This document shows, in pieces, positions 10,225 through 62,430 of a DNA stretch of 64,000 nt. The position numbers were made by a program, and so were the translations under genes. Position 1 is the first letter of the stretch, and every line of letters starts with the position of its first letter. The stretch lies in assembly GCF_963921235.1 (NCBI RefSeq), contig NC_086097.1, forward strand, positions 69,566,001-69,630,000. The letters run 5' to 3'. Below the pieces are notes generated by a model. That model was not told the origin of the DNA, searched no databases, and saw only the letters and a list, made by a program, of their open reading frames with translations. Source of the stretch: Mobula hypostoma. Its lineage: Eukaryota.

Positions 10225-10760
10225 CATCATCATCCGGGATGTAATGTTGAGACATTATAAAGCACTTGGAATATTGTGAGCAGTTTTGGGTCCCTTAGAA
10301 AGGATGTGCTGAAACTGGAGAGGCTTGTCACATGAAGAGCATTTGAGAGCTACGGGCTGGAATTCGCTTGAATTCAGAAGAATGAAAGGTGGCCTTATTG
10401 AAACCGATTGAATGGGGAAAGGGCCTTGATAGAGTGAGGGTGGAGAGGATGTTTCCTATGGTGAGAGTCTAGGACCAGAGGACACAGCCTCAGAATAGAG
10501 GGGTGTAATTTTAGAATAGAGATGAGGAGGACTATCTTTAACCAGGGAGTGGTAATCTGTGAAATTCTTTGCCATGGGCAGCAGCGGAGGCCAAGTCTTT
10601 ATATTTAAGGCAAAGGTTGATAGATTCTTGGTTAGTTAGGGCATGAGGAGATATGGGGAGATGGCAGGAGATTGGGGATGAGAGGAAAATTAGATCAGCC
10701 ATGATGAAGCAGACTCGATGGGCCAAATGGCCTAATTCTGCTCCTGTGTCTTATGGGTTT
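10225..10760 (+). mobile_element. CR1 LINE 3' end
   Basis: Decayed CR1 C-terminal coding and 3' UTR (...GGGCCAAATGGCCTAATTCTGCTCCTGTGTCTTATGG). Same family as the inverted copy at 55060-55700. Confidence 0.85.
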
Positions 10761-10964: not shown

Positions 10965-11115
10965 TAAAAATAAACTACAGATTCTGGAAATCTGAAATAA
11001 AAGCAGAAAATGCTGGATACCTCAACAGGTCAGGCAGCATTTGTGGAAATAGGGAGTTAAGTTAGGTGATAGATTTGAAAGAACTTCAGGTCAGAAATCT
11101 TTCATCAGAGCTGTT
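10965..11115 (-). mobile_element. Degenerate Penelope-associated terminal repeat
   Basis: CAGATTCTGGAAATCTG...AATGCTGGATACCTCAACAGGTCAGGCAGCAT...TTCATCAG is similar to the left arm of the 53737-53966 element. Confidence 0.55.
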
Positions 11116-17503: not shown

Positions 17504-18801
17504 TGTAGCAATGTGCTACACACAGAGCTAGAGATAACGACACGCAGTCTGTAAGTCACACTCGAGACTTATTTATTCAAACTTCGCGGCACTGGCTTTT
17601 AAACAGTTCCCCTCCAGCCCTCTCCGGGTGGAACTGACGTCAGAGGTGCATTACAGAAGTTTCTCCCCGCGCGCGGGCTATTTTGTGAGCCTGTTCGCTT
17701 GTGTAAAAAGTGGGTCGCCACATAACCCCTCCCCCCCCCACCCCAGCGTCGGGGGTAAGACGCTGATCTCCGCTCCGGTGTCGACCAAGAAGTGGCGTCC
17801 CGACTGTTTGTCCCAGACGTACAGAAGGCTGTCCTAGTGGCCAGCCACCGTAGTCATTAGCGGCGGCTGGCCCTGGCGTTTCCCGGGACCTTGCAGGATG
17901 GGCAACAACGGCAGGCTTCTGTGCCCCACTGCTGGTGGTAGAAACACCACTGTTCATTGGCCTCCTCACTCCTGCCTCTGGGTTGTGTGCGCTCCGTTGC
18001 CGGGCCTGGTCTGGCCTGCTGTTGGGCGCGTGGCTTGGTAATCTGTCCGATGGACGCCCCGCTCTCCCTCTTGGCTTTCCACAGCATGTCTGCCCAGGCC
18101 GCCACCTTCTGGGGGTCACTGAAATCTGCGTCGGCCAGCAGCAGATGTATGTCCTCGGGCAGTTGTTCTAGGACCGCCTGCTCAAACATGAGGCAGGGCT
18201 TGTGTCCTTCAGCCAGGGCCAGCATCTCGTTCATTAATGCTGACGGCGGCCAGTCTCCCAAACCGTCCAGGTGAGGCAAACGGGCACCTCGCTTATGCCG
18301 TGAGAGGCCAAGGGTCTCTGTGAGCAATGCTTTGAATGCTGCATATTTGCCTTCTTCGGGGGGGGGTGACTGTATGAAATCCCCAACCCGTGCAGCTGTC
18401 TCCTGGTCAAGGGAGCTCACCACGTAATAGTAACGTGTGAAATCTGAAGATATCTGCCGAATCTGGAACTGGGCTTCTGCTTGGTCAAACCACACGCGTG
18501 GTCGCAGCGTCCAGAAAGTTGGCAGTTTTAGTGAAACTGCATGAACAGGTGAAGAGTCAATCGTCTTTGGTCCAAATTCCGTTTGCACCGCCGGGGTCAC
18601 CAATGTAGCAATGTGCTACACACAGAGCTAGAGATAACGACACGCAGTCTGTAAGTCACGCTCGAGACTCGTTTATTCAAACTTCGCGGCACTGGCTTTT
18701 AATCAGTTCCCCTCCAGCCCTCTCCGGGTGGAACTGGCGTCAGAGATGCATTACAAAAGTCTCTCCCCACAGTTTGCTTGTGTAGAAAGTGGGTCGCCAC
18801 A
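17504..18801 (-). mobile_element. Internally deleted Gypsy (Mag-like) LTR retrotransposon: LTR-PBS-gag-partial protease-PPT-LTR
   Basis: Direct repeats 17504-17722 and 18604-18801 with TG...CA ends. 4-bp TSD AAGC (17500-17503, 18802-18805). PBS TGGTGACCCCG on the minus strand next to the 5' LTR. PPT GGGGGGGGGAGGGG next to the 3' LTR. AATAAA in the LTR on the minus strand. Confidence 0.96.
17857..18603 (-). CDS. Uninterrupted gag reading frame of the Gypsy element (no in-frame ATG near the expected start)
   Basis: AVSLKLPTFW...P.VWF.QAEAQF..RQI....TRYYYVVSSL and the C-terminal WCFYHQQWG..A..C..SC zinc knuckle. 248 codons without a stop. The expected start position reads ACG. Confidence 0.8.
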   Translation of the reverse strand: MVTPAVQTEFGPKTIDSSPVHAVSLKLPTFWTLRPRVWFDQAEAQFQIRQISSDFTRYYYVVSSLDQETAARVGDFIQSPPPEEGKYAAFKALLTETLGLSRHKRGARLPHLDGLGDWPPSALMNEMLALAEGHKPCLMFEQAVLEQLPEDIHLLLADADFSDPQKVAAWADMLWKAKRESGASIGQITKPRAQQQARPGPATERTQPRGRSEEANEQWCFYHQQWGTEACRCCPSCKVPGNARASRR

Positions 18802-19719: not shown

Positions 19720-21269
19720 CATGCCTTGGAAAAGTATTCAGCCCCCAACGCATTATTGAAATAAATATTCCAACCAAGGATTTTGGTCAATTTAACTGGG
19801 AGTTTTTAGTTGTGAAAAAAACGGAAAAAGCAGTAAAGCATGAAAATCTAAAAATTCAAAAATTGAAGTGTCAGCAGTTCAAAAGTATTCATTCCCCTTT
19901 GGTCAGTACTAAAACGAACCACCTCGTGCAGCTATTACAGCCAGTAGTCTTTTTGGATAAGTCTGTATTAGTTTGGCACAGCACGACAGAGCAGGATTTG
20001 CCCATTCTTCATTGCAAAATTACTCAAGCTGTGCCAGGTTATTTGGGGAGCGGTGGTGGACAGCAATCTTGAGATCTTGTCAGAGATGTTCGATTGGGTT
20101 AAGGTCAAGATTCTGACTGGGCCACTCGAGATCAATCTCCTTCATCTGAAGCCACTCCCTGGTTGCTCTGGCAATGTGCTTTGGATTGTTGTCCTGCTGG
20201 AAGACGAATTTCCTCCCCAGTTTAAGCTTTCTGGGAGCATGTAGTAGGTTTTTTAATCCAGGATCTCTCTGTTTTTAGCAGCATTCATCTTCCCAATTAT
20301 CCTGACCAGATTTCCTGTCCCTGCTGTGGAAAAGCATCCCCATAACATTATGCTACCTCCACCATGCTTTACAGTAGCAATGGTATTACCAGTCTGATGC
20401 ACAGTATTAGATTTACACCACAAGTACCATTTAGTGTTGAGGCCAAAAAGTTCCACTTCATATTCATCTGACCAGAAGATCTTCTTCCACATCTTTACAG
20501 TATCTTCTAAATGAAGCTTTGCAAAGTCTTGCTGGGCAAGGATTTTTTTTTTAGCCAGTGTTTCTTCCTTTCCACTCTTCCATAAACTCCCTTTTTTTGC
20601 AAGGGTTTAGAGATTGTAGAGCCATGAACTTCATCTCCATTTGCAGCCACTGACATCTGCAAATCGCTCAGAGCGACTGTTAGCGTTACAGTAGCCTCTC
20701 TTACAAGTACCATTCTTCTCCGGCGACTAAGTTTACAGGGACAGCCTGACTTAGGCAGGGTGGCTGTGGTTTAATACTTTTTCCACTTCTTCGCAATGAG
20801 CTACACTGAGCTCCGAGGTATGTTCAGTGCTTTTGAGAAGGTCTTGCACTCTTCTCCAGATTTGTGCTTCTCTATTATCATTTCCCTGACTCGTCTTGAA
20901 TGCTCTTTTGTCTTCATTTTGGTTTGGTCTGTTGAAAATCTACCATACTGTTGGACTTTACAGAGAGAGGGATATTTATTCAGGTGATCCTCCAATTTTC
21001 TACATCAATAAATTGAGTGTGTTGGTAAGGTAATATTGCACCTGAAGAAAGTTAGTACAGTAATTACAAAGGAGATGAATACTTTTTCAGCTTCACAATT
21101 GAGGGTTTTAAAATTTAGTAAATTGTTGACAGGATTTGGAATTTTCCTTTTGACTTGACATGATGTACAGTGTTTTCTAGATTAGCTCTAAAAATCATTC
21201 TTCAATGTATTTTAAGTTTAGAAAATGTGAAAATAGTTGTTTGGGCCTGAACCCTTTTTCAAGACACTG
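19720..21269 (-). mobile_element. Tc1 DNA transposon (IR/DR type), degenerate full length
   Basis: TIRs CA(-)TGCCTTGGAAAAGTATTCAGCCCC and GGGCCTGAACCCTTTTTCAAGACACTG, with inner repeats near 19880 and 21075. Frameshifted transposase pieces MKTKEHSRRVREMIIEKHKSG..., [14 protein letters not shown]...[16 protein letters not shown]. Confidence 0.93.
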
Positions 21270-21444: not shown

Positions 21445-21570
21445 GGGTCCAGATGAAGGTTCTCAGCCTGAAATGTCACCATTTCTCTCCATAGGTGCTG
21501 CTTGAGCTGCTCAATTCCTCCAGCGTGTTCATTGCTCCAGATTCCAGCATCTGCAGTCTCTTGTGTCTCC
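21445..21570 (+). mobile_element. Penelope-associated terminal repeat with decayed hammerhead core
   Basis: CCAGATGAAGGTTCTCAGCCTGAAATGTC...TGCTGCTTGAGCTGCTCAATTCCTCCAGC...CCAGCATCTGCAG is homologous to the right arm of 53737-53966. Confidence 0.65.
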
Positions 21571-26239: not shown

Positions 26240-28940
26240 AATTCCTAGGTATTTTACAAGTACATCAAGAGCAAGAGGACAACAAGTGAGTGAGTAGTAC
26301 AACTCAAGAATAAAGGAGGGAACATGCGCTTGGAGACAAAGGAGGTGTGTGTCATCTTAAATGAGTATTTTGTGTCAGTATTTAAGAAAAAGAAGGAAGT
26401 GGAGGAAGGCGAGATCAATGTAGATTAGTATCAGTGATCAAACAGTGCTAATATAATATGGCATTTTGAGATAAAGAAGATATAGTGTTAGGTTTATGAA
26501 AGAACATTAAGATGCAGAAGTCTCCAGGGCCTGACAGGATATACCCAGGTTATTGAGGAACAAGCAATGAGTTTTCTGGAGCCTTAACCAATATTTTTGT
26601 GTATATCTCTCTCTATCAATGGAGGAGGTCCTGAAGGACTGATGAGTAGCTCATATTTTTCTTATTGAAGAAGGAAAATGGGGATGATCCTTGTGAGTCT
26701 CATGTCAGTGGTAGGGAAGTTACTGGAGAGGATTCTTGGGGATAGGATATGTGAGTCGTTTGAAGATACAAACAGCATGGCTTTTTGTGGGTCAGGTTGT
26801 GCATTATGAATTTAATTTAGTTTTTTGACCAGGTGACAAACATGAGTGATGCAGATCAAGCTGTGGATGTTGTTTCCATGGATCTTACTCCAGTGTTTAA
26901 CAAGGTCCTTCATTGGATGCTCATGCAAAGATTAAGATGCATGGGCTCTACAGTGAATTGCGGTTTGTATTCAGAATTGGCTTACTCATAAGATAGTGTT
27001 ATGGTCAGTGAGACTTATTCTGGCTGGAGGTCTGAGGCTAATGGTGTTCCACAAAGATCCATACTGGGACAATTGCACTTTGTGATTATATATAAATAAC
27101 CTGGATGAGAATGTAGATGGCTGAGTTGGTAAGTTTTCAGGTGATACAAAGATTGGTGGTGTTGATGGTGCAGAAGAGTGACAAAGGATACAGCAGTATA
27201 TAGCTCATTTATAAATATGAGGGGAGAAATGACAAATGGAGTTTAATCCAGCCATTGTGAGGTGTTGCATTTAGGGAGATTGAACATAAAGGGATGGTAC
27301 ACTGTTCATAGCAAGACTCTTAACATTGCTGATGTGCAGTGAGATATTGGAGTTCCAGTCCACAGCTCCCTGAAAGTGGTAAAGAAGGAATAAGGCATGT
27401 TTGTCTTTATTTGTTGAGGAATTGAGTTCAAGAATTGGGAAGTTATGTTGCAACTTTATAAAACTCTATTCAGGCTGCGTCTGGAGTATTGCATTCAGTT
27501 CTGGTTGCTGTATTTATCAAAAGGATGTTGGGGTTTTGGAGAGGTTGCCAAAGATGTTTGCCAGAAAACTGCCTGCATTAGGGGGCAAGTGCTATAAGGA
27601 GAGGTGGGGTTATTTTCTCTGTAGTGGCAGATGTTGAAATGAGATCTGTTAGAGCTTTATGAGATGAATAGATAAACAACTGTATCTTTTTCCCAGAGAT
27701 GGAATGTCCTGTACCAGAGGGCACACTTTTAAGGTGAGGTGATATGTAGAGTAATTTTTTTTTGTTACGCAGAGTGGTGGGATGGTGGTGGAGGCAGATA
27801 TAATAAGACCATAAGACATGGGAGCAGAATTAGGCCATTCAGCCCATTGAGTCCTCTCCTCCATTCCATCATGGCTGATTCTGGATCCCACTCAACCCCC
27901 TACATCTGCTGTTTCGCCATATCCTTTAATGTCCTGACCAATAAGGAAACTATCAACTTCCTCCTTAATTATACCAACAGACATGGCTTCCACTGAAGTC
28001 TCTTCCACAGATTCACTACTCTCTGGCTAAAAAGAAATTTCTCCTTACCTCTGTTCTCAAAGGTCACCCCTCCATTTTGAGGCAGTGCCCTGTAGTTCTG
28101 GATACCCCCACCATAGGAAACATCCTCTCTACATTCACGCTATCTAGTCCTTACAACATTTGGTAGGTTTCAATGAGATTCCCCCCCCCCCCCCCGCATT
28201 CTTCTAAATTCCAGTGAGTACAGCCCAAAAATGGCAAATACTCCTCATATGTTAATCTCTTATTCCCGGAATCATCCTTGTGAACCTCCTGTGGATTCTT
28301 TCCAATGACAAGACATCCTTTCTGAGATATGGGGCCCAAAACTGTTGACAATACTCCAGGTGCAGCCTGACTAATCTTAAAGGCTCAGCATTATCTCTTT
28401 GCTTTCATATTCTATTTCCCTTGAAATAAATACTAACATTGCATTTGCCTTTTTTACCACAGACTCAACCTGTAAATTAATCTTCTGGACGTCTTGCACG
28501 AGGACTCCTAAATCTCTCTGCACCTCTGATGCATGAACCTTCTCCCATTTAGATAATAGTCTGCGCTATTGTTCCTTTTACCAAAATGTATTATCGTATA
28601 TTTCCCTACACTATATTCCACCTGCCACTTTTTTGCCCGTTCTTCCAATTTGTCTAAGTTCTGCTGCAATTGCATAGCTTCCTCAGCACTACCTACCCCT
28701 CCACCTATCTTCATATCACCCATAAACTTTGCTACAAAGCCATCGATTCCATTATCCAATAATGGAATTGATAATAAGCATTCAAGATGCTCTTAGGCAC
28801 ATGAACGTGCAGGAAGTGGTGGAAGGATATGGATATTTTGCAGGCAGAAGGGATTAGTTTATTTGGGCAGTTGGTTACTGATTAGTTCAGCTCAAGTTTG
28901 TGAATCAAGGGTTGGTTCCTGTGATGTTGCATGTTCTACG
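26240..28940 (+). mobile_element. Old CR1 LINE ORF2 fragment, interrupted by an inverted younger CR1
   Basis: Decayed KSPGPD.IYPR.L..., SLMSVVGKLLERIL.D, QHGF, VD..MD, GVPQ.S.LG motifs from 26240 to 27800. The 3' UTR resumes at ~28770-28940. Confidence 0.85.
27803..28757 (-). mobile_element. CR1 LINE, 5'-truncated, inserted antisense into an older CR1
   Basis: (ATAAGACC)n tail at 27803. ORF 28508-28759(-) DNGIDGFVAKF.GDMKIGG...LQQNLDKL...AKKWQ.EY.VGK. Confidence 0.9.
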
Positions 28941-31762
28941 TTCTCTGATGTTACTATTCTTTCCTAAGTTCACATGCCTGCGCACACAAGTGTGCATAAC
29001 TTGCGTAAATCTGAGGTCCTCAGATGCTCAAGTGAGAAGTAAAATTGCATGAAGATATTGATACTGGGTTGTGTGGCTGCCTAGTTGTTTTAACAGAGAT
29101 TAATTCTATGAATTGAGTACAGATGGATATGTAATTTATTTATGGAGTTGGCAATCATTTTTTTCTGTATTGGAATCTCGCCTTGGATGCAAAACTACTT
29201 GCTAATTTGTAGTGTGGAACATAATGGGGAACAATTATTTTCTCCTTAATTGCTTAGATGTGTAGTATGTATCATGGATAGTTAGTGTTGGTTTGGCATT
29301 TGTTGTGCTTAAGTCTATTTCATGCTTTTTGGTAATCAGCGTCTCCTGTAGTTTTTTCTGTTTGTTCATTTTGGAGTAGGAAGTCTGTCTTTGTGTGGAT
29401 CTCTTTCACTGAAGACCTTGGGTACAGCTTCTAAGAGTTAGTATTTTGGAAGTAAGAAAACTACTGCAATTTTACAAGCTGCAGTAGTGTTGTATTCATC
29501 TGTCTATTGCCTTGAGTCTTGACGGTTTGTCTTTCTTCGGTTCTAACATGAACCTGGTTGGCAGGCTATTAAGAATTTTGGATTATCACGAACCTAAGCC
29601 TAAACAGGTTTAGTTATTTGCATACCTGTCTATTACAATGGGTTGATGTGGTTCCAGGTTTGTGTTTACCTTTTATTTTGCCCCATGCATTAGCACAACC
29701 ACCTAGACCAGGGGTCGGCAACCTTTTTGCCTCTGTGGGCCGGATCGCGTATAAATGAGCAGACGGTGGGCCAGATAAATGCCACAAAAAACATGCAATA
29801 TGGGAATTATCCATTTAAATACATCTGGTTATGTTTTGCCTCAAATTAATGAGTAACGCAAGCTAGAAAATCATTTGTGCTGAACCAAGGATGCCAATTA
29901 GTAATCAAAGATCTCAGTTTAGTTGCAATTTATTTCAATCAAGGCATCTTTTGAATCTATTAAATGGACACAAAGAATTTTTAAACATAAAACGTATGAA
30001 CATGATGCATTGAATGTTGGTAAATTAAGTATAATAAAAAAGAAAATTTTAATGCAAACAATGGATAAATCAATGTGAAACTTGATGCTGTTTGTTGCTT
30101 GAAAGCTTCTCAATATTGGGTGTCAGACTTGTTGATGCCAAGAGCAAGACGTTATCCAGATGGGCATCAGTCAATCTTGTTCTCAAATGGTTCTTGGTGT
30201 GCTTCATTTTTGAAAATAATTGCTCACAGAGGTAAGTGTTGCCAAAGAATGATGCCATTGTTTTTGCCTGGTCCACTAAGTTAGGGTACTTCCCACTTGG
30301 ATGAATATATTTTCTATAGAAGTCAAGCACTGACATATCTTCAGAATGAAATTTCGATCTCAATATGTCGTCACACTGCACCTCAATTAATTCCATTTGA
30401 AAAATTTCTGATGCAGTGTCCACTTCCACATCAAATGGAGTAGCAAACAGTTTGAACTCATTTGCATGCAAGCGAAATTCAGCAAAACGAGATGAAAACT
30501 CTTTTTTCAATTCTTGCACCATATTCACAAAAATTCTTGGATCTTGTGCTTTATGTTTTTGAAAAGTGGGAAAATGTGCACAATTTCCTTTTTGAAGCTG
30601 GTACTCCCACAATTGCAGTTTTCTTTCAAAGGCCACAATATGACCATACATCTCATGTATCAGCTGATTTTTTTTTCCCTTGAAGTTGTAAATCCAAGTT
30701 ATTTAAATGAGATGTAATGTCCACAAGAAATGCCAAGGTTGCAAGCCAATCAGGATCACGAAAATGTGAAGCATCCTGATTTTTGCTTTCAAGGAGTATT
30801 GCCACCTCTTCATGCAATGCAAGTACTCTTTCCAGCATTGACCCTCGGCTAAACCAGCGTACATTGCAGAAATAAGCCAGGTCCCCATATTCTGCCTCTG
30901 TATCCAACAAAAACTGCTGAAACTGGCGATGATTCAATCCACGAGATAGGATCAGATTCATTGCCCTCACAACAATGTCCATAACATCCTTTAATTTCAA
31001 AGACTTGACTCATAATGCCTCTTGATGGATAATGCAATGAATTTTAACCAGTTTCTGTGCAATTCCAAGGTTTTCCATTTGTCCTTGCAGCAATGCGTTG
31101 ATGCCTTTTTTCTGTCCCACCATTGCTGGTGCCCCATCAGTTGTGATGCCAATTAGGTTCAACACTTTAAGTTTCATTTCTGGCATCATTTTCAACAAAG
31201 CTTCAAAAATATCTGCTCCAGTAACCATTGTCCTTCATAGGAATTAATTGAATAAACTCTTCAAAATTTGAGAAGTTGAGGACACTCGTCGCATAAACAA
31301 TGCAAGTTGAGCAGTGTCTTGCAAGTCTGTGTTGTCATCAAGCGCAACTGAAAAAAATTGCAATTCGTTGCAGGCATCCCTTAAACAACTTCTAACATCT
31401 GCTGACATTTCTTCAACTCGCCTTGTGGTCGTTCTTGCTGACAGGCAAGATGCAAATAAAGATTTCTTTTCAGGACAAACAATATCCACCACCGTCAGTA
31501 AACATTCTTTCACAAACTCTCCATCTGTAAAAGGCTTCATCTTTTCTGCAATACATTTTGAGACTCTGTAGCTGGCATGGGTATTTCCTTCATTTCACTG
31601 CTTTTCTTGGCAAAAAATGACGTTTATTTTCCGAAATTAGCCTTCATTCGCTCAACTTCATCTTTCCTTGCTGCCCAGTAAACGTGTTAACATTTCCACT
31701 ACGGTGGGTCTCGTAATGTTGCCTGATATTTGCCAGCTTCTTCTCAGCAACATTTTCTAGGC

Positions 31763-34342
31763 TAGTGGTCACCAACCTCAGCCTTAGTGAAAGGCAAGAT
31801 CAACCTACAAAATCGTTCAAAGAAAAAACAGCTTAGATTGTACTTCCAACTTGAGGCCTTTTTTTTTGGCCTAATTGTATTTGAAATACATAAAATGCTT
31901 TTGTCAAACTTTCAAATTAATTCAACCAAGAAAACACTGTAACTAGCATATCAAACAGGCCATAGCTGTCTTTCTTTAAGAATATTACAATACTTCATAC
32001 CTTTTGTAGTACCTTCTACTTTGAAAAAGGACCACTCGACAACTTCATGTCCAAAGGAACAACTTTATCTGGGATGGCAAAACCAATGCGGCGGAGGGGT
32101 TTATACACACATGCGCAGAAAAGACTGCAAGTAAAACCCTGCAACCCCAGAAACAACCTCTGTTTACAAACAGCTTTCTGTAGCGGGAGTATTGCTATAT
32201 TACCATTATCCTAATTGGTATTATCTTTATAATGCTCACATTACAACATTTCTCCCCCTTTAAATTCCAACATTCCCCACACGGAGGAGGGAGGAGAAGA
32301 TGGCAGTGTGCGCGGCCATTCCGAATAATATCGTATGTGTAACTAGGGGCCGTGCACAAACCTGGTTTGATGGAGACAGCCGTGAGAAGCACAGAGGAAC
32401 ACCTGGAGAAACTTCGGAAATGCCCGCTTCGCTGCCGCTGCTACTGTGTGATTGAGAATCTCTGGAGGGGAAGGCCCCAAATCCTTGGCTTTGCCTATTG
32501 CCTGTTGCTGGGGCCAGGGTCGAAGCGCTCGGCAGAGATGGTGCTCGGTGTCGAAGAGCTGGTCAGAGGCTCGGAGTTTTCGGACAGACTTGGAGTCGAA
32601 CTGTGGTTGGATGCTTCCAAGATGCTGCATTGGCAAATTTGCGGCACTGGAGGTTCACCGTCTGTGTGAGATGATGGGACTTTCGAAGACTTTGAGACTT
32701 TTTACTGTGCCATGGTCTGTTCTTTATCAAATTACAGTATTGCTTTGCACTGTTGTAACTATATGTTATAATTATGTGGTTTTTGTCAGTTTTTCAGTCG
32801 GTTTGTCATGTGTTTCTGTGATATCGTTCTGGAGGAACATTGTATCATTTCTTAATGCATGCATTACTAAATGACAATAAAAGAGGACTGCGTTTCCTTA
32901 TAATCTAATCTAATCTAATATAAAAGAACTGGGAAACAAAAAACAGTGGTGTCATTAGCTTGCGTACCTCTGAAACTTATACAAGTGTCTCAGTAACAGT
33001 TTACCAATACAAGACACCTGAAATATGTGGCAGATTCAACATTCAGTCTGTCAGGAGGTTTGCGAGGGTTCTGTGCTGCAACGGTTTGTTGACTTGCTGT
33101 CTGAGATAAAGAAACGAGGAGCACGAGGAACTGTCAGATGATGCATGGCTACTGGATTTAGGGTTTCTGACAGACCCAATGGCTAAATTAAATGCACATA
33201 ACAACGAGCTCATGGGAAAAGACCGACACCTGCCCCACCTGATAAGCGCAGTAAATGCGTTTAAGGCCAAGCTTGGTGTTTGGATTTCAAATTTAAAGAA
33301 CGGGAGGCTGACACACTTTCCCAATTTGGAGAAACTGTTATAGGCCATCAAGGAAAAAAATGCTTTTCACCCCGAGCAGTACTGTGCTTACCAAGACAAA
33401 GTGGCAATGGAGTTCGATTGGCGTTTTGAGGAGTTAAACGTCATGAAAGATATTGCTTCATTTATTTCAAACCCATTTCTGCCGATCGATATAGAACAGA
33501 TAGCAGCCAAATTCCAGCAAGTATTTGGTGTGCCAAGTGATATTGAAATGCAAATAGTTGATTTGCAAAATGACATCGAGCTTAAAGCAAGATCAAGGGA
33601 CGGTGACTTTTGTGGGCTTGTCAGCAGGGAGAAGTTTCCTCATCTCACCACAAGTGCACTAAAAGTCAGTGCCTACTTCGGGTCAACTTATCTGTGTGAA
33701 ATTGCATTTTCATAGATGACAATTATTAAATCTAAGTGCAGGAGCTGTCTTACTGACAGACACCTGACAGACTGTCTCAGGCTGGCTGTCTGTAGTTATG
33801 AGCCAAATTTCAGGGAACTAGCAGAAAGTATTCAGCCCCAGTCATCACACTGAGTGCAACAGTCAATTTTTATTCATTCATTTTTTTTCATGTTGAAGTA
33901 ATATTAGAACTAAATAAACTTAGAATTAAAGGTGTTATAATGTGAGCATTATAAAGATAAGTTAATACTAATTAGGATAATAATAATATAGCAATACTCC
34001 TGCTACAGAAAGCTGTTTGTAAACAGAGGTTATTTCCAGCGTTGCGGGATTTTACTTTCGGTCTTTTCTGCATGTGTGTATAAACCCCTCCGCCGCATTG
34101 GTTTTGCCGTCTCAGATAAAGTTGTTCCTTTGGGCATGAAGTTGTCGAGTGATCCTTTTTCAAAGTAGAAGTTACCACATATGACTCACATATGTGCTCT
34201 AGGGGTAAAATTTGCTTTTCCATCAAAAGGTTTATCAGGAATAATGTATTTGTGTATTTATTTTTCTTTTTTTTTTCTGTATCTACTGGGAAAGTCTCAA
34301 AGATCGACCGGTCGATTGCGATCGATGGCTTGGCGGCCACTA
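31763..34342 (+). mobile_element. Second hAT-Charlie element nested in the first, opposite orientation
   Basis: TIRs TAGTGGTCACCAA and TTGGCGGCCACTA; perfect TSD TTCTAGGC (31755-31762, 34343-34350). Only the C-terminal transposase part remains at ~33040-33853 (W..DLGFLTD...LN..N.ELMGK, FGSTYLCE.AFS.M.IIKSK.RS.LTD.HL). Confidence 0.95.
32283..32919 (+). mobile_element. Non-autonomous retroposon with (TAATC)n tail inside the inner hAT
   Basis: CpG-rich 5' part starting GGAGGAGAAGATGGC, T-rich 3' part, AATAAA at ~32876 and a (TAATC)3 tail at 32901-32919. No TSD seen. Confidence 0.7.
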
Positions 34343-37760: not shown

Positions 37761-39374
37761 TAGTTGCAAGAAAAAGTTTGAAAACCCCTTGCAGTTACCT
37801 GGTTTTCTGTATTAATTGCTCAGAAAATGTGGTCTGATCTTCATCTAAGTCACAATAATAGACAAACAGAATCTGCCTAAACTAATAACACACAAACAAT
37901 TGTACTTTTCGGTCTTTATTGAACACATTGTGACAGTCCAGGCTGGAAAAAGTATGTGAACCCTTGTATTTAGTAACTGACAGAACCTCCTTTAGCAGCA
38001 ATAACCTCCACCAAATTTCCTGTAGCTGCTGATCGGTCTTGCACAACGGCGAGGAGGAATTTTAGACCATTCCTCTATACAAAACTGTTTCAGTACATCA
38101 ACATTTCTGGGTTATTTTACATGAATAGCCCTCTTCAGGTCATGCCACAGCATCTCAATTGGGTTAAGGTCTGGACTCTGACCTGGCCAATCCAAACCAC
38201 AAATTTTCTTCTTTTTAAACTATTCTGTTGTTGATTTATGTATATTTCAGATTGTTGTCTTGTTGCATCATCCATCTTCTATTAAGCTTCAGGTGATGGA
38301 CCGCTACCCTGCCATTCTCCTGTAAGATGTCTTGATACAATTTTAAATTAATTGTTTCCTCAACAATTGCAAGTCGTCCAGGCCCTGAGGCAGCAAAGCA
38401 GCCCCAAACCATGATGCTCCTTCCACCTTGCTTCACAATTAGGATGAGGTTTTGCTGTTATCCTCCAAACATAGTAGTGTCTATTTCTGCCCAAAAGTTC
38501 AACTTTTGTCTCATTAGTCCACACAACATTGTCCCAGAGGCATTGTGGAATATCTAGATGGTCTTTTGCAAACTTGAGTCGTGCAACAGTGTTTTTTTGG
38601 AGAGCAGTGGTTTCCTCCGTCCGTGGTGTCCTACCATGAGCACCATTTTTGTTCAGGGTTTTTCTTATTGTGGACACATGAACAGAGATTTTAGCAAGTT
38701 CTCCAATCACAAACTGAGTTCTAGAGATTCCTGCAGGTCGTTTGTTGTTACTTGGGTTCTTTTTCACCTCTTTCAGTATTGCACGTAATGCTCTTAGTGC
38801 GATCTTTGCAGGACACCCACTCCTAGGGAGAGTAGTAACAGTACTGAATTTCCTCTACTTGGAGACAATTTCTCTTACTGTGGACTAATGAGCACTCAGG
38901 TCTTTAGAAATGCTTTTGTAGCCTTTTCCAGCTTCATGCATCTGTACAATTCTTCTTCTAAGACCCTCTGAAAGTTGTTTTGATGGAGGCATGGCGCACT
39001 TAAAGAGATCTTCTTGAGAAGAGCAGACTTTGTCAGTAAACCTGACTGTGTGTGTCTTTTTTTTATAGGGTAGGACAGCTCTACAGCCCAAACCTCCAAT
39101 CTCAACTCATTGATTGGAACACCTGACTCCAAATAGCTTTTGTCGAAGGCATTACCCCAGAGGCTCATATACTTTGTTGCACGTAGACTGTGATTGTTTA
39201 AATGGTGTACTCACTATTGATGAGAAGAAGTACAATTGTTTGTGTGTTATTAGTTCAGGCAGATTGTGTTTGTCTATTATTGTGACTTAGATGAAGATTA
39301 GACCACATTTTAAGAGTAATTAATGCAGAAAACCAGATAATTGCAAGGAGTTCACAGACATTTTCTTGCAACTG
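37761..39374 (-). mobile_element. Tc1 DNA transposon with ~200-bp TIRs, degenerate
   Basis: TIRs TAGTTGCAAGAAAAAGTTTG... and ...CATTTTCTTGCAACTG|TA. Transposase pieces MPPSKQLSEGLRRRIVQMHEAGKGYKSISK, WDNVVWTNETKVEL, KQGGRSIMVWGCFAASGPG, MQQDN. Confidence 0.94.
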
Positions 39375-40019: not shown

Positions 40020-40625
40020 TTCTCATTCTCATTGAGCACCTTTGCTCCATCCGTTGCAAAAGACAGAATCTCCTGGTTTCAATTTGACTTCTTATTGCAA
40101 CGTATCTGTCCATGGCCTCTTCTATTGCCACAATGAAGCCACACTCAGATTCCATCTGAGTAGCTCTCAACCTTATATCATGAAGATTGATTTCTTTAAC
40201 TTGTGATAATCTATCCCCACTCTCCTTTTCCCTTCTATTTATCCATTGCCTATTCTGGTTCTCCCCTCACTCATCACCTCCTTATGATGCCCCTCCTTTC
40301 CTTTCTTCCATGGTCCACTGTACTCTCCTAATGGATTCCTCCTTCAACTCCTTACCTCTTTCACCTATCACCTCTCAACTTCTTATTTTATCTGCCATTC
40401 TTCCACCACCCAACTTTCTCTCACCTGGTTTGCCTTATCACATGCCAACTTGTACAGCTCCCCCTCCTACATTTTTTTTTCTGGTTTCTGCCCCTACCTT
40501 TCTAGTCCTGATGAGAGATCGCCGCCTGAAAAATCTCCATAGATACTACTGGACGTGCTGAGTTCCTCCAGCATTTTTTTGAGTTTTGCTCAAGATTTCC
40601 AGCATTGCAGGATCTTCTGTGTTTA
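40020..40625 (+). mobile_element. Penelope-like element 3' end (GIY-YIG C-terminal remnant, pyrimidine-rich spacer, terminal repeat with decayed hammerhead)
   Basis: Decayed EHL.SI..., SVHGL.YC..EAT, F.L.S.QP..M.IDF.N motifs at ~40030-40200. GTCCTGATGA at 40505 and TGCTGAGTTCCTCCAGCATTTT...CCAGCATTGCAG follow. Confidence 0.7.
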
Positions 40626-41793: not shown

Positions 41794-42064
41794 GATTTAT
41801 TGAGATCTGTACTACCTGACTCGATAGAAAGTGCACTACAAGGTGATGAAAGATGTGTGCTTGACACGATGCGATTGGTGGATCTACTTCTGGTATTACT
41901 TTTTGAAGGACGTAAAGCTTTGCCAAAGTCTAGTGCTGGTTCCACGGGTAGGATCCCTGGCCTCAGGAGGTTGGACAGTTCTGGAGAGCGTTCTCATCGT
42001 CAGCTTATTGATTGCATTCGTAGTAAAGACACTGATGCATTAATAGATGCCATTGATACTGGAG
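41794..42064 (+). CDS. HECTD1: HECTD1 coding exon 5
   Basis: [44 protein letters not shown]...[22 protein letters not shown], phase 1; 271 nt. Confidence 0.98.
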
Positions 42065-42154
42065 GTAAAATAATGTTTGCTGAGAGGGAATTACTTTTGT
42101 TGTCAAGATTTTTTTTTCTCCCAATCTAATTTTTTTCCCTTTTTTTTGCATTAG

Positions 42155-42231
42155 CTTTTGAAGTGAACTTTATGGATGATGTGGGTCAAACCCTTTTGAA
42201 TTGGGCTTCAGCTTTTGGAACTCAAGAAATG
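42155..42231 (+). CDS. HECTD1: HECTD1 coding exon 6 (ankyrin repeat start)
   Basis: CATTAG|CT TTT GAA; (A)[34 protein letters not shown]; 77 nt. Not in the ORF track. Confidence 0.97.
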
Positions 42232-42421
42232 GTAAGCAAATCCTTCCATCCACTTTTGAAAGTCTGAGCTCCTATGTAATAAATATTTCATGTGAAGGAT
42301 AAAATTAATATCTAATACAGTACCTGTCATCCTTTTGGTCAAATTAGATACAAGCTAGGGACAAAAGTATAATGTTACACAAAGTATTGTGTAGGAATAT
42401 CTCATCAAACTATCTTTTCAG

Positions 42422-52655: not shown

Positions 52656-53164
52656 ATTTTACTTTGTGTTTGTTTCAAGTACAGTCAATATAGTTTATAT
52701 TTTGTCATTAATTTTGAAACTGTGTACAATATTTAGAAATTCCTTTGGCCAAAAATATACAACTGCATTATTACCCAGCGAGTTGAAATTCCATGATTAC
52801 CAACAGCATTGTTATTGTCAAATTTCTCCTCCAGTTGTTTGCTTTTTTTCTTGGTTTCCTTCAGTACTTACCTGCAATGTAATTGAACTCAACTTTTCAA
52901 AATTACTGTTCGATAGTTTATAGTATGTACATTTTCCAATTTTTTTTATTGGCTGCAGTGCTGTTGACATGGCAAACGGTGGCAAGATATATTAAATTCT
53001 GTTTAGACGATATTTTACTGAAAATGTATTGAAATAGGCATGCCACTTTGTGAGATAATGATTGATAACGGTACTTTGAAATATAATTTTATTTGATTCT
53101 CAACAGTTATTCAATTTGTCTCTAATTTCATGTTACCAATATTTATTTTCCCTTGTGTTTCCAG

Positions 53165-53303
53165 GAAAGCAAGTCTTGCTCTTGTTCGAAAGATGGTACA
53201 TTATTGTTCTGAGGCACTTCTGAAGGAAGTGTGTGATTCAGATGCTGGCCACAACTTGCCTACAGTTTTGGTAGAAATTACAGCCACAGTCCTGGATCAA
53301 GAG
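53165..53303 (+). CDS. HECTD1: HECTD1 coding exon 10
   Basis: [69 protein letters not shown]; 139 nt. Confidence 0.97.
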
Positions 53304-53736
53304 GTCAGACTGTGTGTTTAAAAAATAAAATCTCATTTACAGCAGAGTTTAAATACTTTTATATACTGGATATCAATTAATATTAGTTTATCAGGTATCT
53401 TCTGGTGCCCATTTCAAAAGGTTAAATCTAAGACAAAAAGTTGAATTAAATTATTATTGTGGAAAAGCAAGATGGGTCACATAGGCCGATTAAATGTAAT
53501 ATGTTAAAATCGTCATTGCATATTTTAAGTATGTTTACTGAGCTGATAATCTCCATGAAGCAATGTGAATGTTAATGCTAAATCTTTATCTGTAAAGGGT
53601 AGGACATGGATTTCCCATGGATAACAATAAACAGAAATACCGCTGCGATGCTTTTCTTTGTGTCGAATGCACCCTTATAAACATAAGCCCTGTCATGTTC
53701 CATGAATATTAATACACCTTAATAAGTATATTCAAA

Positions 53737-53966
53737 ACACAAAATATTCTGCAGATGCTGGGGTCAAAGCAACACTGACAACATGCTGGAGGGACTCAGC
53801 AGGTCTGGCAGCATCCGTGGAAACGATCAGTCAACGTTTTGGGCCGGAACCCCTCATCGGGTCCTGCAGCAGTCCTGATGAAGGGTTCTGGCCCGAAACG
53901 TTGACTGATCGTTTCCAGGGATGCTGCCCGACCTGCTGAGTCCCTCCAGCATGTTGTGAGGGTTGC
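53737..53966. mobile_element. Palindromic Penelope-derived non-autonomous insertion (230 bp)
   Basis: Flanked by the direct repeat (T)AAGTATATTCAAA (53723-53736, 53967-53980). 94-bp inverted arms 53768-53861 and 53874-53967 with about 8 mismatches. Confidence 0.9.
53870..53907 (+). ncRNA. Minimal type I hammerhead ribozyme motif
   Basis: CAGTC-CTGATGA-A-GGGT-TCTG-GCCC-GAAA-CG-TT-GACTG: stem I CAGTC/GACTG, conserved CUGAUGA and GAAA boxes, stem II GGGU/GCCC, palindromic ACGU in place of stem III, NUH site GUU. Activity not demonstrated. Confidence 0.7.
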
Positions 53967-54029
53967 TAAGTATATTCAAATATTTAAGTACTTAAGAGTA
54001 AATGATCATGGACAACAAACATTCTCTTA

Positions 54030-54490
54030 TAAGACCATAAGACACAGGAGCAGAATTCGGCCATTCCATTATGGCTGATCCCGGATCCCACTCAACCCCA
54101 TACATCTGCCTTCTCGCCATATCCTTTGATGCCCTGACCAATCAGGAAACTGTCAACTTCTGCTATAAGTATACCCAGGGATTTGGCCTCCACCTCAGTC
54201 TGTAGCAGAGCATTCCACTGATGCACCACTCTCTGGCTAAAAAAAAAATCCTCCTTACCTCTGTTCTAAAAGGTTCCCCTCATTTTTGAGGCTGTGCCCT
54301 CTTGTTCTGGATACCCCCAGCATAGGAAACAGCCTCTCCACATCCACCTTATCTAGTTCTTTCAACATTAGGTTGGTTTTAATGAGATTTCTTTCACCCC
54401 ACCCCCAGCATTCTTCTAAATTCCAATGAGTACAGGCCTAAAGCTGCCAAATTCTCTTCATGTTAACCCCTTCATTCCTTGAAATCATTC
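54030..54490 (-). mobile_element. CR1 LINE 3' end
   Basis: (ATAAGACC)n tail; closely similar to 27803-28280. Confidence 0.88.
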
Positions 54491-55059
54491 CCTTGAAACC
54501 TGCAAGGAGGAATTGGTTCTGAAATCACAAGGTGGAAGTATATAAATAGGGAACGCTCCAAGATAGCACACAACAGGGAGCCATTTGACACAAACAGTCT
54601 GAAAGTAGATAAGCACACTTATACCATGATGGATTGCTCTTTGTATTCATAAAGGCTTGGGAAATTATTGAAACAATTGTTCTGAGGGACAGGATTAATC
54701 AATATTTGGAAAGCTAGGAATTGGTCATGGATAGTCAGGATGACTGTGGGTGGGTAATGCTTTCTGGCAATTGAAGCCTCTTAAAGAGGCAGCTAAATAA
54801 CTTTAGTAAGGAAATTGTAGTTGATGTGGCTTAAAAGGACAATGGAATTCTGGTCCAAAAATTTGGAGCCCATGGGATCCAAGGTAAGTCAGTGTAATGG
54901 TGGTTGGTGCTATTGCCAGTGATCAGTGTGCCACAGGGATCAGATCTGCCTCCTTGATGTTTTTTTAATAAATGTAACATTGTGAACATTGGATTAATAA
55001 GTTTCTCGATAACATGAAAAGTGGTAGCATTAATGGTGAGTAAAGTATACTAAAGTTTT

Positions 55060-57660
55060 TAAGACCATAAGATATAGGAGCAGAACTTGGTCATTTGGCC
55101 CATTGAGCCTGCTCCACTATTTCATCATAGCTGATCCATTTTTCCTCTGAGCCCCAACCTCCTGTCTTCTCCCCGTAACCCTTCATGTCCTGACCAATCA
55201 AGAATCTATTAATCTCTGCTTTAAATATACATAAAGACTTGGCCTCCACAGCTGCCTGTGGTAACGAATTCCACATATTCACCACTCCCTGGCTGAAGAA
55301 ATTCCTCCTCACCTCCAATCTAAAAGGATGCCCCTCTATTTTGAGTTTGTCCCTCTGGTCTTAGACCCTCCCACCAGGGAAAACATCCTTTCCACTTCCA
55401 CTCTATCAAGGCCTTTCACCATTCGATAGGTCTCAACGAGGTCACCGCTCATTCTTCTAAATTCCAGTGAATACAGGCCTAGAGCCTCCAAATGCTCTTC
55501 ATGTGATAAACCGTTTAATCCCGGAATGATTTTGGTGAACCTCCTTTGAACCCTCTTCAGTTTCAGCACATCCTAAGATGAGGAGACCAAAACTGCACAC
55601 AATACTCCAAGTGAGGCCTCACCACTGCTTTATAAAGTCTCAGGATTACATACTTGCTTTTATATTCTAGTCCCCTTGAAATGAATGATAACATTGCATT
55701 TGCCTTCCTCACCACAGACACAACCTACAAATTAGCCTTTAGAGAATCTTGCACAAGGACTCCAAATTCCTTTGTGCCTCAGATTTTTTTTTCAACAATA
55801 TTTTTATTGTTTTTTTAAATAAAGGGAGCATAGCATAAAGGAGATTTGGGCAGTGCCTCAGATTTTTGTATTTTCTTGCCATTTAGAAAATAGTCACTCC
55901 TTTCATTTCTTCTACAGAAGTGCATGACCATACACTTCCTTCCAAAGTGACCTCACATTTACCAACATTGTACTCCATCTGCCAGACCCTTGCCCACTCA
56001 CTTAACCTATCTTTATCTCTCTCCAAACTCTCTGTATCTTCTGCACAATTTGCTTATCCACTCAATTTAGTATCATCCGCAAACTTAGGTACACTGCACT
56101 CAGTCCCCCCTTCCAGATCGTTAATGTATATCGTGAACAGTTGCGGGCCCCTGTGGCACACCGCTCCATCTGCCACTTCTTTGCCCATTCTCCTCATCTA
56201 AGTATTTCTATAGCCTCCCTATTTCCTCAAAACTGCCTGCCCCTCCACTTGTCTTTGTATCAGCTGCAAACTTTGCATCAAAACCATCAATTCCATCATC
56301 CAAATCATTGCCACATAGCATAAAAAGAATTGGTCCTAACACAGACCCCTGAGGAACATGACAAGTCATTGGCCCCCAATCAGAGAAGGCTCCCTTTATT
56401 CCCACTCTTTGCCTCCTGCCAATCGGCCACTGCTTTATCCATGCTAGAATCTTCCCTGTAATACCATGGGCTTGTAGCTTGTTAAGCAGCCTCATTTGTG
56501 GCACTTAGTCAAGGTCTTCTGAAACTTCAAGTACACAACATCCACTGATTTTTCTTTGACTATCCTGCTTGTTATTTCTCAAAGAATTCCAACAGATTTG
56601 TCAGGCAAGAGGAAACCATGCTGCCTGTGGCCTATTTTATCAAGTGCCTCCAAGCACCCCAAAACCACATCCTTAACAACGACACCAACATCTTCCCAAC
56701 CACTGAAGTCAGACTATAATTTCCTTTCTTCTGCCTCTCTCCCTTCTTGAAGAGTGGAGTGACATTTGCTATTTTCCAGTTTTCTGGAACCGTTCCAGAA
56801 TCTAGTGATTCTTGAAAGATCATTGCTAATGCTTGTACAATCTCTTCAGCCTAGGTGGACACCATCTGGGCCAAGTGACTTATCTATCTTTTAGACCTTC
56901 CAGTTTCCCAAGAACCTTCTCTCCAGTCATGGTAAATTTGCACACTTCATGACCCCTGGCACCTGGAAATTCCTCCATACTGCTAGTGTTTTCTACAGTG
57001 AAGACTGATGCAAAATACTTATTTAATGTATCCATCATTTCTTTGTCCCCTGTTACTACCTCGCCAGCATCGTTTTCCAGTGGTCCGATTTCTTCTCTTG
57101 CCTCTCTTTTATACTTTATGTGCCTGAAGAAATTTTGGTATCCTCTGTAATATTACTAGCTAGCTTACTTCCATGTTCCATCTTTACTTTCTTAACGACT
57201 TTCTTAGTTGCCTTTTGTTGGTATTTAAAAACTTCCCAATCCTCTAACTTCCTACTAATTTTACTCAATGATGTGCCCTTTCTTTGGCTTTTATGTTGGC
57301 TTTGGGTTCTCCTCTTAGCCATGGTTGTGTCAGCTTGCCTTTGGAATACTTCTTCCTCTTTAGGATTTATAGATCCTGTGCCTTCCGAATTGTTTCCAGA
57401 AATTCCAGCCGTTGCTGCTCTGCCATCATTCCTGCCAGTGTCCTTTTCTAATCAATTCTGGCTCACTCTTCTGTAATTTCCTTTACTCCACTGTAACACT
57501 GATACATCTGACAAACTTCTGTTTCTCAAATTTCAGAGTGAATTTGATCATGTTATAATCACTTGCCCCTCAGGGTTCTTTTACTTTAAGCTCTGGTTCA
57601 ATTCTGGTTCATTGCACAACATCCAATCCAAAATGGTGGGCTGAGCCACGAGCTGCTCAT
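55060..57660 (-). mobile_element. CR1 LINE, long ORF2 fragment
   Basis: ORF pieces LKLKRVQRRFTKIIPGL, RLLNKLQAHGITGKILAWIKQW..GRRQRV.I.G..S.W......VPQGSVLGPILF....NDLD......AKFAADTK, IFQESLDSG.VPENWKIANVTPLFKKG. Confidence 0.92.
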
Positions 57661-59449: not shown

Positions 59450-62430
59450 GTATACTTTCTATCCCTCCAACCCTATCCTTACCACCGCGTCGACCTGCAA
59501 GTGAACCTTCAGGAAATCATGTACAAGGACTCTCCTTTGCATTTCTGATTTTGAATTTTCTCCACGTTTAGAAAATAGACATGCCATTATTCCTTCTGCC
59601 AAAGTGCAAGACCATACATTTCCCTCCACTGCATTCTGCCACTTCTTTGCCCAATCTCCCAATCTATCCTGCAGACTCTCTGCTTCTTCAACACTACTTG
59701 CCTCTCCACTTATCTTTATCATCTGCGAACTTGGCCACAAAGCCAAAAATTCCGTTATCAAAATCGTTGATGTATAATGTGAACAGAAGCATTCCCAATA
59801 CCAACTCCTGCGGAACACCACTAGACACCAGCAGCCAACCAGAATAGACCACCTTTATTCTGACTCTTTGCCTCCTGCCGATCAGCTAATCTTCTCTGTG
59901 TGCTAGTAACTTTCCTGTATTACCATGGACTCTAACCTTGTTAAGCAGCCTCATGTGCAGCACCTTGTCAAGGCTTCCTGAAAATCCAAGTAAACAACAG
60001 CCATTGACTCTCCTTGGTCTATCCTGCCTGTTACTTACTCAAAGAATTCCAACAGAGTTGTTATGTAAAATTTCTCCTTAAGGAATGCATGCTTACTCTA
60101 GCATGATAAAGCCTTCTTTATCATGCACCTCTAAGTACCCTGAAACCTCATTCTTAATAATGGATTCCAAAATCTTCCCAACCACTGAAGTCAGACTAAC
60201 TGGCCTATAATTTCCTTTTGTCTGTGGAGTGGCATTTGCAGTTTTCCTGTCCTCTGGAACCATTCCAGAATCTAGTGATACTTGAAAGATCATTACTAAT
60301 GCTGCCACAGTCTTTTCAGATATGAACCCGGGAGTGTAGTCTATCTGGTCCTGTTGACTTATCTACCTTCATACCTTTCAGCTCCATAAGCACCTTCTCA
60401 TTAGTAAAGCAACTACATTCACATCTGCCCCTGACGCTCTGAAATTTCTGGCATACTGCTGGTATCTTCCACAGTGAAGACTGATGCAAAATACTTATTA
60501 AATTTGTCTGCCATTTCTTTGTCCCCCATTACAACCTCTCCAGCATCATTTTGCAGCAGTCCAATCAATGTCCACTCTGGCCTCTCTTTTACTGTTTATA
60601 TACCTGAAAAAAACTTTGGTTATCTTCTTTGATATTTTTGGCTAGCTTATTTTCATATTTCATCCTTTCTCTCCTTATGTTTTTTTTTAGTTTCTTTCTG
60701 TTGGTTTTTAAAAGCTTTCCAATCCTCTAACTTCCCTCTGTTTTTGCTTTACCATATGCTCTTTCTTTTGCTTTTATGCTGCCTTTAACTTCTCTTGTCA
60801 CACATGGTTGCCTCATCCACTTCTTAGAATACTTCTTCATCTTTGAGGTTCATCTATCCTGCACCTTCTGAATTGCTGCCAGAAACTTCAGCATTTGCTG
60901 TCATCCCTGATGGTGCCCCCATCCAACCAGCTTTGGCCAGCTGCTCTGTCGTATATCTGTAATTCCTTTTACTCCAAAAATACTGATACATCTGACTTTT
61001 GCTTCTCTCTCTCAAACTGCAGGGTGAATGAGATCATATTCTGATCACTATCTCCCAAAGATTTCTCTACCTTAAGTGCCTTAATCAAAACTGGTTCATT
61101 ACACAACACCCAATCCCGAATAGCTGATCCCCTAGTGGGCTCAAGCACAAGCTGCTTTAAAAATTCATCTCATAGGCATTCTACAACTTCCCTCTCTTCG
61201 GATCCAGCACCAACTTGATTTTCCTAGTCTACCTTCATATTGAAAATCCCCCATGACTTTCGCAACATTACCCTTTTGACATGCGTTTTCTGTCTCCTGT
61301 TGTTATTTATATGTAACAACCTGGCTATTGTTGTATATAACTCCCATCAGGGTCTTTTTACCTTATTCCGTGTACTGCATGCATTCAAATATAACACCTT
61401 TAGTCCTATATTCATCACCCTTTTTGATTTTTGCCCTCCTGTTATACTTCAATTCATCCACTGACTGCAATTTTGCTCTATCATCTGCCTGTCCATCCTC
61501 ACACTCTACACATTGTATCAAGATGTATACCAATGGTCCTGTCCTCAGTCATATCACTCCAATTTCCAGCCCCCTGCCAATTTTGTTTAAACGCTCCCAA
61601 CAGCTCCAGTTAACCTGCCTACAACGATATTGGTCCCCCTTGGGTTCAGGTGTAACCTGTCCTTTTTGTTTAGGTCATACTTTCCACAGAAGAGATCCTA
61701 ATGATGAAGAAATCTGAAACCCTGCACCACTTCCTGGGCCATTCATTAATCTGTACCATTATCCTTTTCCTGCCCTGACTAGCACCTGGCAAAGTAGTAA
61801 CCCAGAGATGACTATCGTGGAAATCCTGTTCTTCAGCCTTTTCCCTATCTCCCTGTACTCACTGTGCAGGACTTCTTCTCCCTTTCTACTTGTGTCATTG
61901 ACGCTAGTTTTTCACCACGACCTGTGACTGCTGATCCTCCCTCTTGAGAAACTTCTGCAGCTGCTCTAAGACATCCTGGACCCTAGCACTTGGGAGGCAA
62001 CACACAATTTTTGTTTCTCTTTTGCAGCCATAGAATCTCTTATCCGTCATCCCTAACTATCAAGTTTCCTATCACTACCACTCTGCCTGACTTCACCCTT
62101 CCCTGCTGAGCCTCAGAACCTGCTACAGTGCCACTGGCCTGGCTGCTGCTGCTGCTAAGCTCTGATAGGTCAAACCCCCAGCAGTATCCAAATAGGTTTA
62201 CTAGTTGTGGAGGGGAATGGCCACAGCGGAAACCTGTACTGACTGCTTACTCCCCTTATTTCTCTTAGCTGTCACCCATCTACTATCTGAAACCTGCACT
62301 CTGGGTGTGACCACCTCAGTAAAAGACACGTATATGAAGCTTTCAGCCTCCTGGATGGTTGTGAGTGCATCCAGCTCCAGTTCCTTGACATTTGTCAGTC
62401 AGAAGCTGAAGTTGGGTGCACTTCCTGCAG
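59450..62430 (-). mobile_element. CR1 LINE, long degenerate fragment(s) from RT through endonuclease to ORF1 esterase
   Basis: IFQVSLDSGMVPED.KTANATP...GNYRPVSLTSVVGKILESII (60093-60308). ORF1 motifs RVVVIGNLIVR and IVCCLPSARVQDV at ~61970-62085. May be a composite of more than one copy. Confidence 0.85.

Follow-up and report, generated by a model that had tools for sequence, protein, structure and literature searches.

The stretch of DNA analysed here (the window: 64,000 nt of Mobula hypostoma, contig NC_086097.1, positions 69,566,001 to 69,630,000 of the forward strand) carries exons of the host gene HECTD1, which runs on the + strand. One of the introns holds a 230-bp insert (53737–53966) enclosed by two copies of a short direct repeat and built from two inverted arms, a spacer between them and a 31-nt tail on one arm only. 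A hammerhead ribozyme motif in the second arm begins 566 nt past the end of the preceding coding exon, which agrees with the position given in an earlier sequence-only reading of the locus (about 570 nt 3' of coding exon 10, on the sense strand); this exon is the tenth coding exon provided that a ~90-nt gap within 41794–42234 is an intron. Searches of the PDB with the HECTD1 exons returned no matches. The features of the locus are:

53165–53304, + strand: HECTD1 coding exon upstream of the insert, which sets the pre-mRNA strand
53723–53736, + strand: left TSD, 14 nt, A/T at 12 of 14 positions; its final two A's also match the family 3' end
53737–53767, − strand: 31-nt tail, the family 3'-terminal sequence, on the inverted arm only
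53768–53861, − strand: inverted 5'-truncated pLTR-like arm with a broken hammerhead
53862–53869, no strand: junction spacer, near single-copy, with the 6-nt palindrome CTGCAG at 53864–53869
53870–53967, + strand: direct 5'-truncated pLTR-like arm, ending without a tail
53870–53907, + strand: minimal type I hammerhead; core intact, cleavage predicted after 53902
53967–53980, + strand: right TSD; its first T is common to arm and TSD

The TSD copies are an identical 14-nt direct repeat at an A/T-rich site; 14-mers repeated at a distance of 300 nt or less number 8 of 63,439 in the window. Contigs from four of 24 listed sequencing runs (X1, X5 and X9, from organisms A, B and C respectively, and X12, which looks RNA-like, its RNA nature being a guess) were compared with positions 53100–54060 at 80% likeness. 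In organism C the empty site is precise: one X9 contig (record 26) fuses 53722 to 53967 with a single copy of the 14-mer, and over 735 bases of flank there are 29 differences (~4%) from the window. In organisms A and B, single-copy contigs enter the element from both flanks, with independent contigs at both outer junctions; they carry no differences in A, and 4 in 659 and 0 in 124 in B. The empty site in C together with the flank-to-element contigs in A and B shows that the TSD is genuine and that the insertion is common to A and B. The non-coding insertion with a 13–14-bp TSD recognised from the letters is thereby borne out. In X12, depth is absent on the unique intron flank 53364–53693, and record 9 covers 53162–53304, the upstream exon, with 0 differences.

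The inverted repeat consists of 53768–53861 and 53874–53967, 94 nt each, with 8 mismatches and a 12-nt gap. The insert folds at −188.6 kcal/mol (z −23.7; none of 200 shuffles was equally stable) into a hairpin of 105 pairs, with a longest uninterrupted helix of 35. The two arms have diverged by 8.5%, and four of the eight changes are at CpG. The two arms have one minority letter of the family in common (C at 53942, where the family has T at 95% of depth, and G at 53793 in the other arm, where it has A at 81%), as expected if they were copied from a single template.

The inverted repeat does not reach the left terminus, where 31 nt lie beyond it, and the termini of the insert are thus asymmetric. 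The earlier description of the insert as almost entirely a 94-bp inverted repeat holds for the arms but not for 53737–53767, which is family sequence outside the repeat. Family depth is high over these 31 nt, and loose contig ends lie at 53735, where 202 contigs of X1 and 189 of X5 diverge into unrelated AT-rich flanks, which marks this point as the family 3' end. Three older copies in the window, each a single arm (at 40.6 kb, 21.5 kb and 11 kb), have 3' ends that align to the same 31 nt, so that the inverted arm reaches the family 3' end and the direct arm stops 31 nt short of it. This one-sided tail, overlooked by the sequence-only reading, is the diagnostic part of the structure.

What kind of event leaves such an insert? 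Penelope-like element (PLE) insertions with adjacent inverted pLTRs, joined head-to-head with palindromes at the junction, an optional 31-bp tail on one inverted pLTR and TSDs of 8–10 bp, are described in PMC3846280, and the same insertion scheme, with a tail of 30–40 bp, in PMC8557442. In vitro, the tail corresponds to the sequence between two internal reverse transcriptase start sites, and the targets are AT-rich (PMC11167929). In the insertions of EN+ PLEs that these sources present (Adineta Pen2a/Pen2, PMC3846280; the general scheme, PMC8557442; Anolis Poseidon PAc, PMC11167929), a head-to-head inverted, 5'-truncated terminal copy is shared with our locus, as are the 31-nt tail on one arm, an AT-rich TSD, a palindrome at the junction and a hammerhead in the terminal repeat. 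The present insert differs in having no ORF or internal part within its 230 bp, and its TSD is 14 bp rather than the 8–10 bp of the rotifer PLEs (PMC3846280). Since a tail on one arm only matches the tail of Penelope, the insert corresponds to the published product of head-to-head pLTRs, tail and TSD in a minimal form. As support for joining of the PLE type, the 6-nt junction palindrome is weak when taken alone.

We conclude, with a probability of about 0.8, that the insert arose from one aborted retrotransposition event of a PLE with a very high copy number; that it works like a PLE stub can be said with high confidence. Of the two origins offered by the sequence-only reading, it is thus the second, an extreme 5'-truncated and inverted Penelope insertion, that fits the TSD, the one-sided tail, the variable joints and the non-palindromic family (see below). 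The enzymology can be modelled on PMC3846280 and PMC11167929, whereas the TSD, the empty site, the asymmetric ends and the variable junctions are observed. The element's GIY-YIG endonuclease would have made a staggered cut at the AT-rich intronic site, leaving the observed 14-bp TSD. Two short cDNAs (or one self-primed fold-back) would then have been copied from a single template, beginning near its 3' end: one from an outer initiation site, including the 31-nt tail and laid down inverted, the other from an inner site, tail-less and laid down direct. Both would have halted after ~100–125 nt, on reaching the hammerhead's 5' edge, before being joined head-to-head at the short palindromic spacer. 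The copy would since have decayed neutrally in organisms A and B, with the hammerhead as a passenger of the pLTR. Against a PLE stub stand the length of the TSD and the divergence of the arms, since 8.5% exceeds the expectation from the ~4% flank difference between A and C, and changes at CpG explain only part of the excess.

The searches tied no reverse transcriptase (RT) or GIY-YIG ORF to the family, so that the label "Penelope" rests on anatomy, on the hammerhead and on resemblance. A degenerate frame at 40036–40203, upstream of an older copy of the family, has what we take to be a likeness to the C-terminus of a PLE endonuclease; searches with this frame gave no RT or GIY-YIG match, and the three matches that it did produce are unrelated repeat proteins. 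None of the window ORFs scanned (21 of 36 listed) has an RT or GIY-YIG domain.

The family itself is extremely abundant. In X1, the unique flank has a summed depth of 22.2, against 382,251 at 53902 (~17,000 times the flank) and more than one million on parts of the arms; at 53864, in the centre of the insert, the depth drops to 98.6. These depths are sums over contigs rather than copy number, from assemblers that can break at hairpin tips. The ratio of centre to flank is 4.4 in X1 (A), 9.1 in X5 (B) and 1.6 in X9 (C), where the insertion is absent, and that of centre to arm is 2.6e-4 in X1 and 3.8e-4 in X5, a contrast of four orders of magnitude. No X1 contig crosses the centre among the 32 of 56,631 matches listed. 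Loose ends before 53870, in 365, 312, 232 and 51 contigs, share a pyrimidine-rich consensus, showing that the family extends upstream and is not palindromic; the older copy at 40.3–40.6 kb is likewise preceded by pyrimidine-rich sequence. Where a contig passes from the left arm into the right arm without changing strand, no two joints have the same breakpoints (12 of 12 distinct joints, at depths of 6.7–52, among the 15 of 121 and 12 of 35 joint matches listed, the others of which run into the repeat from 54027 onward, switch to the opposite strand or step backward and were left uncounted). They are scattered over 53872–53965, and two of the 12 head-to-head joints are common to more than one organism. 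One X5 contig (record 22) spans a similar centre with 12 other letters and 7 gaps, so that junctions close to 53862–53869 do recur.

These data bear most directly on the headline of the sequence-only reading, an independent palindromic element of 230 bp carrying only a ribozyme, which could have spread as RNA with the help of proteins from PLEs, or as a DNA hairpin in the manner of MITEs. The tidy anatomy with its TSD would suit such a unit, as would a centre at 4.4 and 9.1 times single-copy depth and the X5 contig with a similar centre. However, the depth of the centre is a minute fraction of that of the arms, it has a background of 1.6 even in the organism without the insertion, the tail on one side makes the ends unlike terminal inverted repeats, and all 12 of the other joints listed differ. 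It had been proposed that genomic copies be compared for shared ends; with the contigs of the four runs as a proxy, what they show is breakpoints that vary, the outcome which the sequence-only reading had itself set as the refutation of an independent unit, and a centre near single-copy. The independent palindromic unit is thus largely refuted, and we regard it as very improbable. MITEs and foldback DNA elements are also short, non-coding, hairpin-forming and flanked by TSDs, as the insert is, but its asymmetric ends, a centre not common to copies and arms derived from the 3' terminus of a longer, retroelement-like family set it apart from them. With the non-LTR retrozymes (PMC7229834; bioRxiv 10.64898/2026.07.22.740005) it shares a non-coding nature, a type I hammerhead and an origin from PLE pLTRs. 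In retrozymes, at least two intact ribozymes stand in head-to-tail tandem, whereas the insert is a lone inverted pair in which a single motif is intact, and it was therefore not classed among them.

The reading that we consider unlikely, yet the most deserving of attention among the alternatives, leaves the insertion event as set out above and changes the template alone: the arms would come from a short, non-autonomous, single-arm unit of ~130 nt, running from the 5' edge of the hammerhead to the tail and mobilised in trans by a PLE, and the locus would be a one-off inverted dimer of it. Both arms end within 4 nt of 53871, and in X5, among the matches listed, 138 contigs leave the reference just before 53871, their loose ends having a median length of 225 nt, an agreement of 0.34 and an A/T-rich consensus; the values at the family 3' end are similar (189 contigs, 255 nt and an agreement of 0.37). 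Non-autonomous derivatives of PLEs have been described (PMC8557442; bioRxiv 10.64898/2026.07.22.740005). These loose ends may indicate that family copies preferentially begin at the edge of the ribozyme, or they may be an effect of the reference, which leaves the family at 53870/53871 and so makes loose ends pile up there. Moreover, 53871 appears in only one of the four runs among the 24 of 1,093 matches listed, the larger contig groups run on into the pyrimidine tract, and the 12 remaining inverted joints are spread out rather than gathered at this point. The least probable account is that of two adjacent, independent insertions of the family, or of a fold-back artefact of assembly. The abundance of the family and the 8.5% between the arms could be cited for it, but a single TSD encloses both arms at a site that is precisely empty in C (which speaks against tandem insertion), a minority letter is common to both arms, independent contigs from both A and B contain the outer junctions, and an artefact would be expected to give identical arms. 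No allele with one arm and its own TSD was seen in the contigs of the four runs.

The ribozyme motif deserves separate consideration. That of the right arm has a stem I of 5 bp, CUGAUGA, a bulged A, a stem II of 4 bp, GAAA, the palindrome ACGU and U17 at 53902. It fits the consensus that PMC4209133 (Fig. S3) gives for minimal type I hammerheads from metazoan PLEs (CUGANGA-H, G10.1–C11.1, GAAA-N-palindrome-NU-H), where its row form "C G U U" recurs across many species; the family is also U-rich upstream. Its short stem II and its position next to its own antisense set it apart, and the alignment given there is without cartilaginous fish. A descriptor modelled on the published consensus, although composed with the motif at 53870–53907 already known, matches the window there alone and has no match in 100 resampled windows. 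The complete sense-strand hammerhead seen in the sequence-only reading is thus upheld by consensus and descriptor, but the covariance-model search that it proposed was negative: no hammerhead family is among the three Rfam matches at E ≤ 10, and at the gathering score the window has none. The three matches are to unrelated hairpin models, every one under its gathering score. Presumably, the Rfam hammerhead models miss motifs that have no stem III. Pattern scans gave no matches in viral contigs and none in metagenomes, and the six loci from a metagenome scan with a shorter pattern were all chance matches of 20–22 nt.

On the minus strand, the left-arm motif is indeed mutated, as had been noted: U4 is C (53859), G12 is A (53840), the bulged A is G and stem I lacks its 5' strand, so that the conserved core is broken. 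At 53853 and 53859, where the family letter is readable, the defects are private changes. Two back-to-back copies of the core are therefore present, as the sequence-only reading held, but as a mere by-product of the inversion. Nor does the intact core in the right arm call for selection, since the chance that three private changes would spare 15 core positions is p = 0.59 (with the polarity inferred for two of the three).

Would the ribozyme be active in the HECTD1 pre-mRNA? Taken in isolation, the 38-mer is predicted to form stems I and II with pair probabilities of 0.90–1.0. In all five folds of the nascent transcript from 53700, both hammerhead stems have a probability of 0.0, and forcing them costs 48.6 kcal/mol; they are disfavoured because the antisense arm is transcribed first. 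As far as folding goes, this agrees with the earlier suggestion that the hairpin sequesters the ribozyme, which in the pre-mRNA is probably locked by its own hairpin; paired with an antisense arm that is transcribed before it, the hammerhead would not be expected to cut. Nor do the computed energies favour dimers: one formed through the ACGU palindrome has −19.3 kcal/mol, whereas two monomers reach −21.0 and the best cofold −27.1. The other strand has a mutated motif; the hairpin aside, the locus is most likely inert. This intronic hairpin of ~100 bp is a plausible substrate for ADAR, which could edit it.

Inertness of this kind would be at odds with a co-opted copy, serving HECTD1 regulation as a switchable intronic ribozyme or an edited hairpin, which we rate as even less probable than the independent unit. 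The sense-strand core is intact and the insertion is present in two organisms, but its absence from organism C makes it young, the intact core is expected by chance and the predicted fold is sequestered. In addition, monomers of minimal PLE hammerheads are described as inactive and their dimers as low in activity (PMC4209133), and in PMC11167929 cleavage was seen only when the PLE protein was present and RNA-seq gave no ends at the cleavage site.

In its present form, then, the insert is a tidy instance of a published Penelope insertion structure, and its significance is limited; with odds that match those of the main reading, a known kind of event, the minimal inverted PLE insertion, explains it and no new mobile unit is called for. 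Nevertheless, it is a minimal case that can be dated (filled in A and B, empty in C) with tail, TSD and junction intact; it may serve as a retroposon marker and adds one case to the data on the mechanism of PLE integration. No description of the family's hammerhead or of inverted stubs in cartilaginous fishes was found in the open-licence literature. Its importance would be greater if the hotspot of 5' ends at the ribozyme proved to define a short mobile unit. In that case, which we hold to be doubtful, a non-autonomous PLE derivative of ~130 nt, ribozyme plus tail, would exist in thousands of copies, with its 5' end at the first base pair of the hammerhead directly behind a pyrimidine tract and a splice-acceptor-like CAG, and its inverted dimers would seed ribozyme hairpins in introns. 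Its natural copies, in the thousands, would then be a record of how PLEs initiate at two sites and join the products head-to-head.

The pyrimidine tract of the family, followed by CAG directly before stem I, resembles a 3' splice site, and a pyrimidine tract with AG directly before stem I is also seen at 40470–40506. In the Penelope of D. virilis, the end of an intron has been placed at helix I (PMC4209133). The best handle on the parent element is an older, longer single-arm copy at 40025–40624 (+), in the intron after coding exon 3, which has the degenerate frame, a pyrimidine-rich stretch, a decayed hammerhead and the full tail. Older fragments of the family are found at 21447–21566 (+), ~10966–11110 (−) and 21240–21265 (−), 72–81% alike to the insert over the matched parts, and the two longer ones retain the tail.

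Several other repeats occupy the window. Just behind the insert, at 54035–54495, is a very high-copy interspersed repeat, which we presume to be a SINE and which recurs at 27804–28530, 10322–10756 and 55060–55784. The region 17504–18768 is a small, young LTR-like element, in which direct repeats of 165 bp, 95% alike, flank a minus-strand frame with DUF7041 (PF23055, E 4.9e-22). At 37762–39373, inverted repeats of 146 bp, 90% alike, flank the remnant of a Tc1/Tc3-type transposase (PF01498, E 1.2e-8). Another pair of inverted repeats (249 bp, 90% alike) lies at 32005–32248 and 33933–34179, ~1.7 kb apart, and three frames tested between them have no Pfam match. A weak match to the hAT dimerisation domain, under the curated cut-off, is seen at 30070–30702 (−). 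Finally, direct copies of 1.5 kb at 56169–57629 and 59635–61116, 71% alike, flank a HECTD1 exon and are probably LINE fragments.
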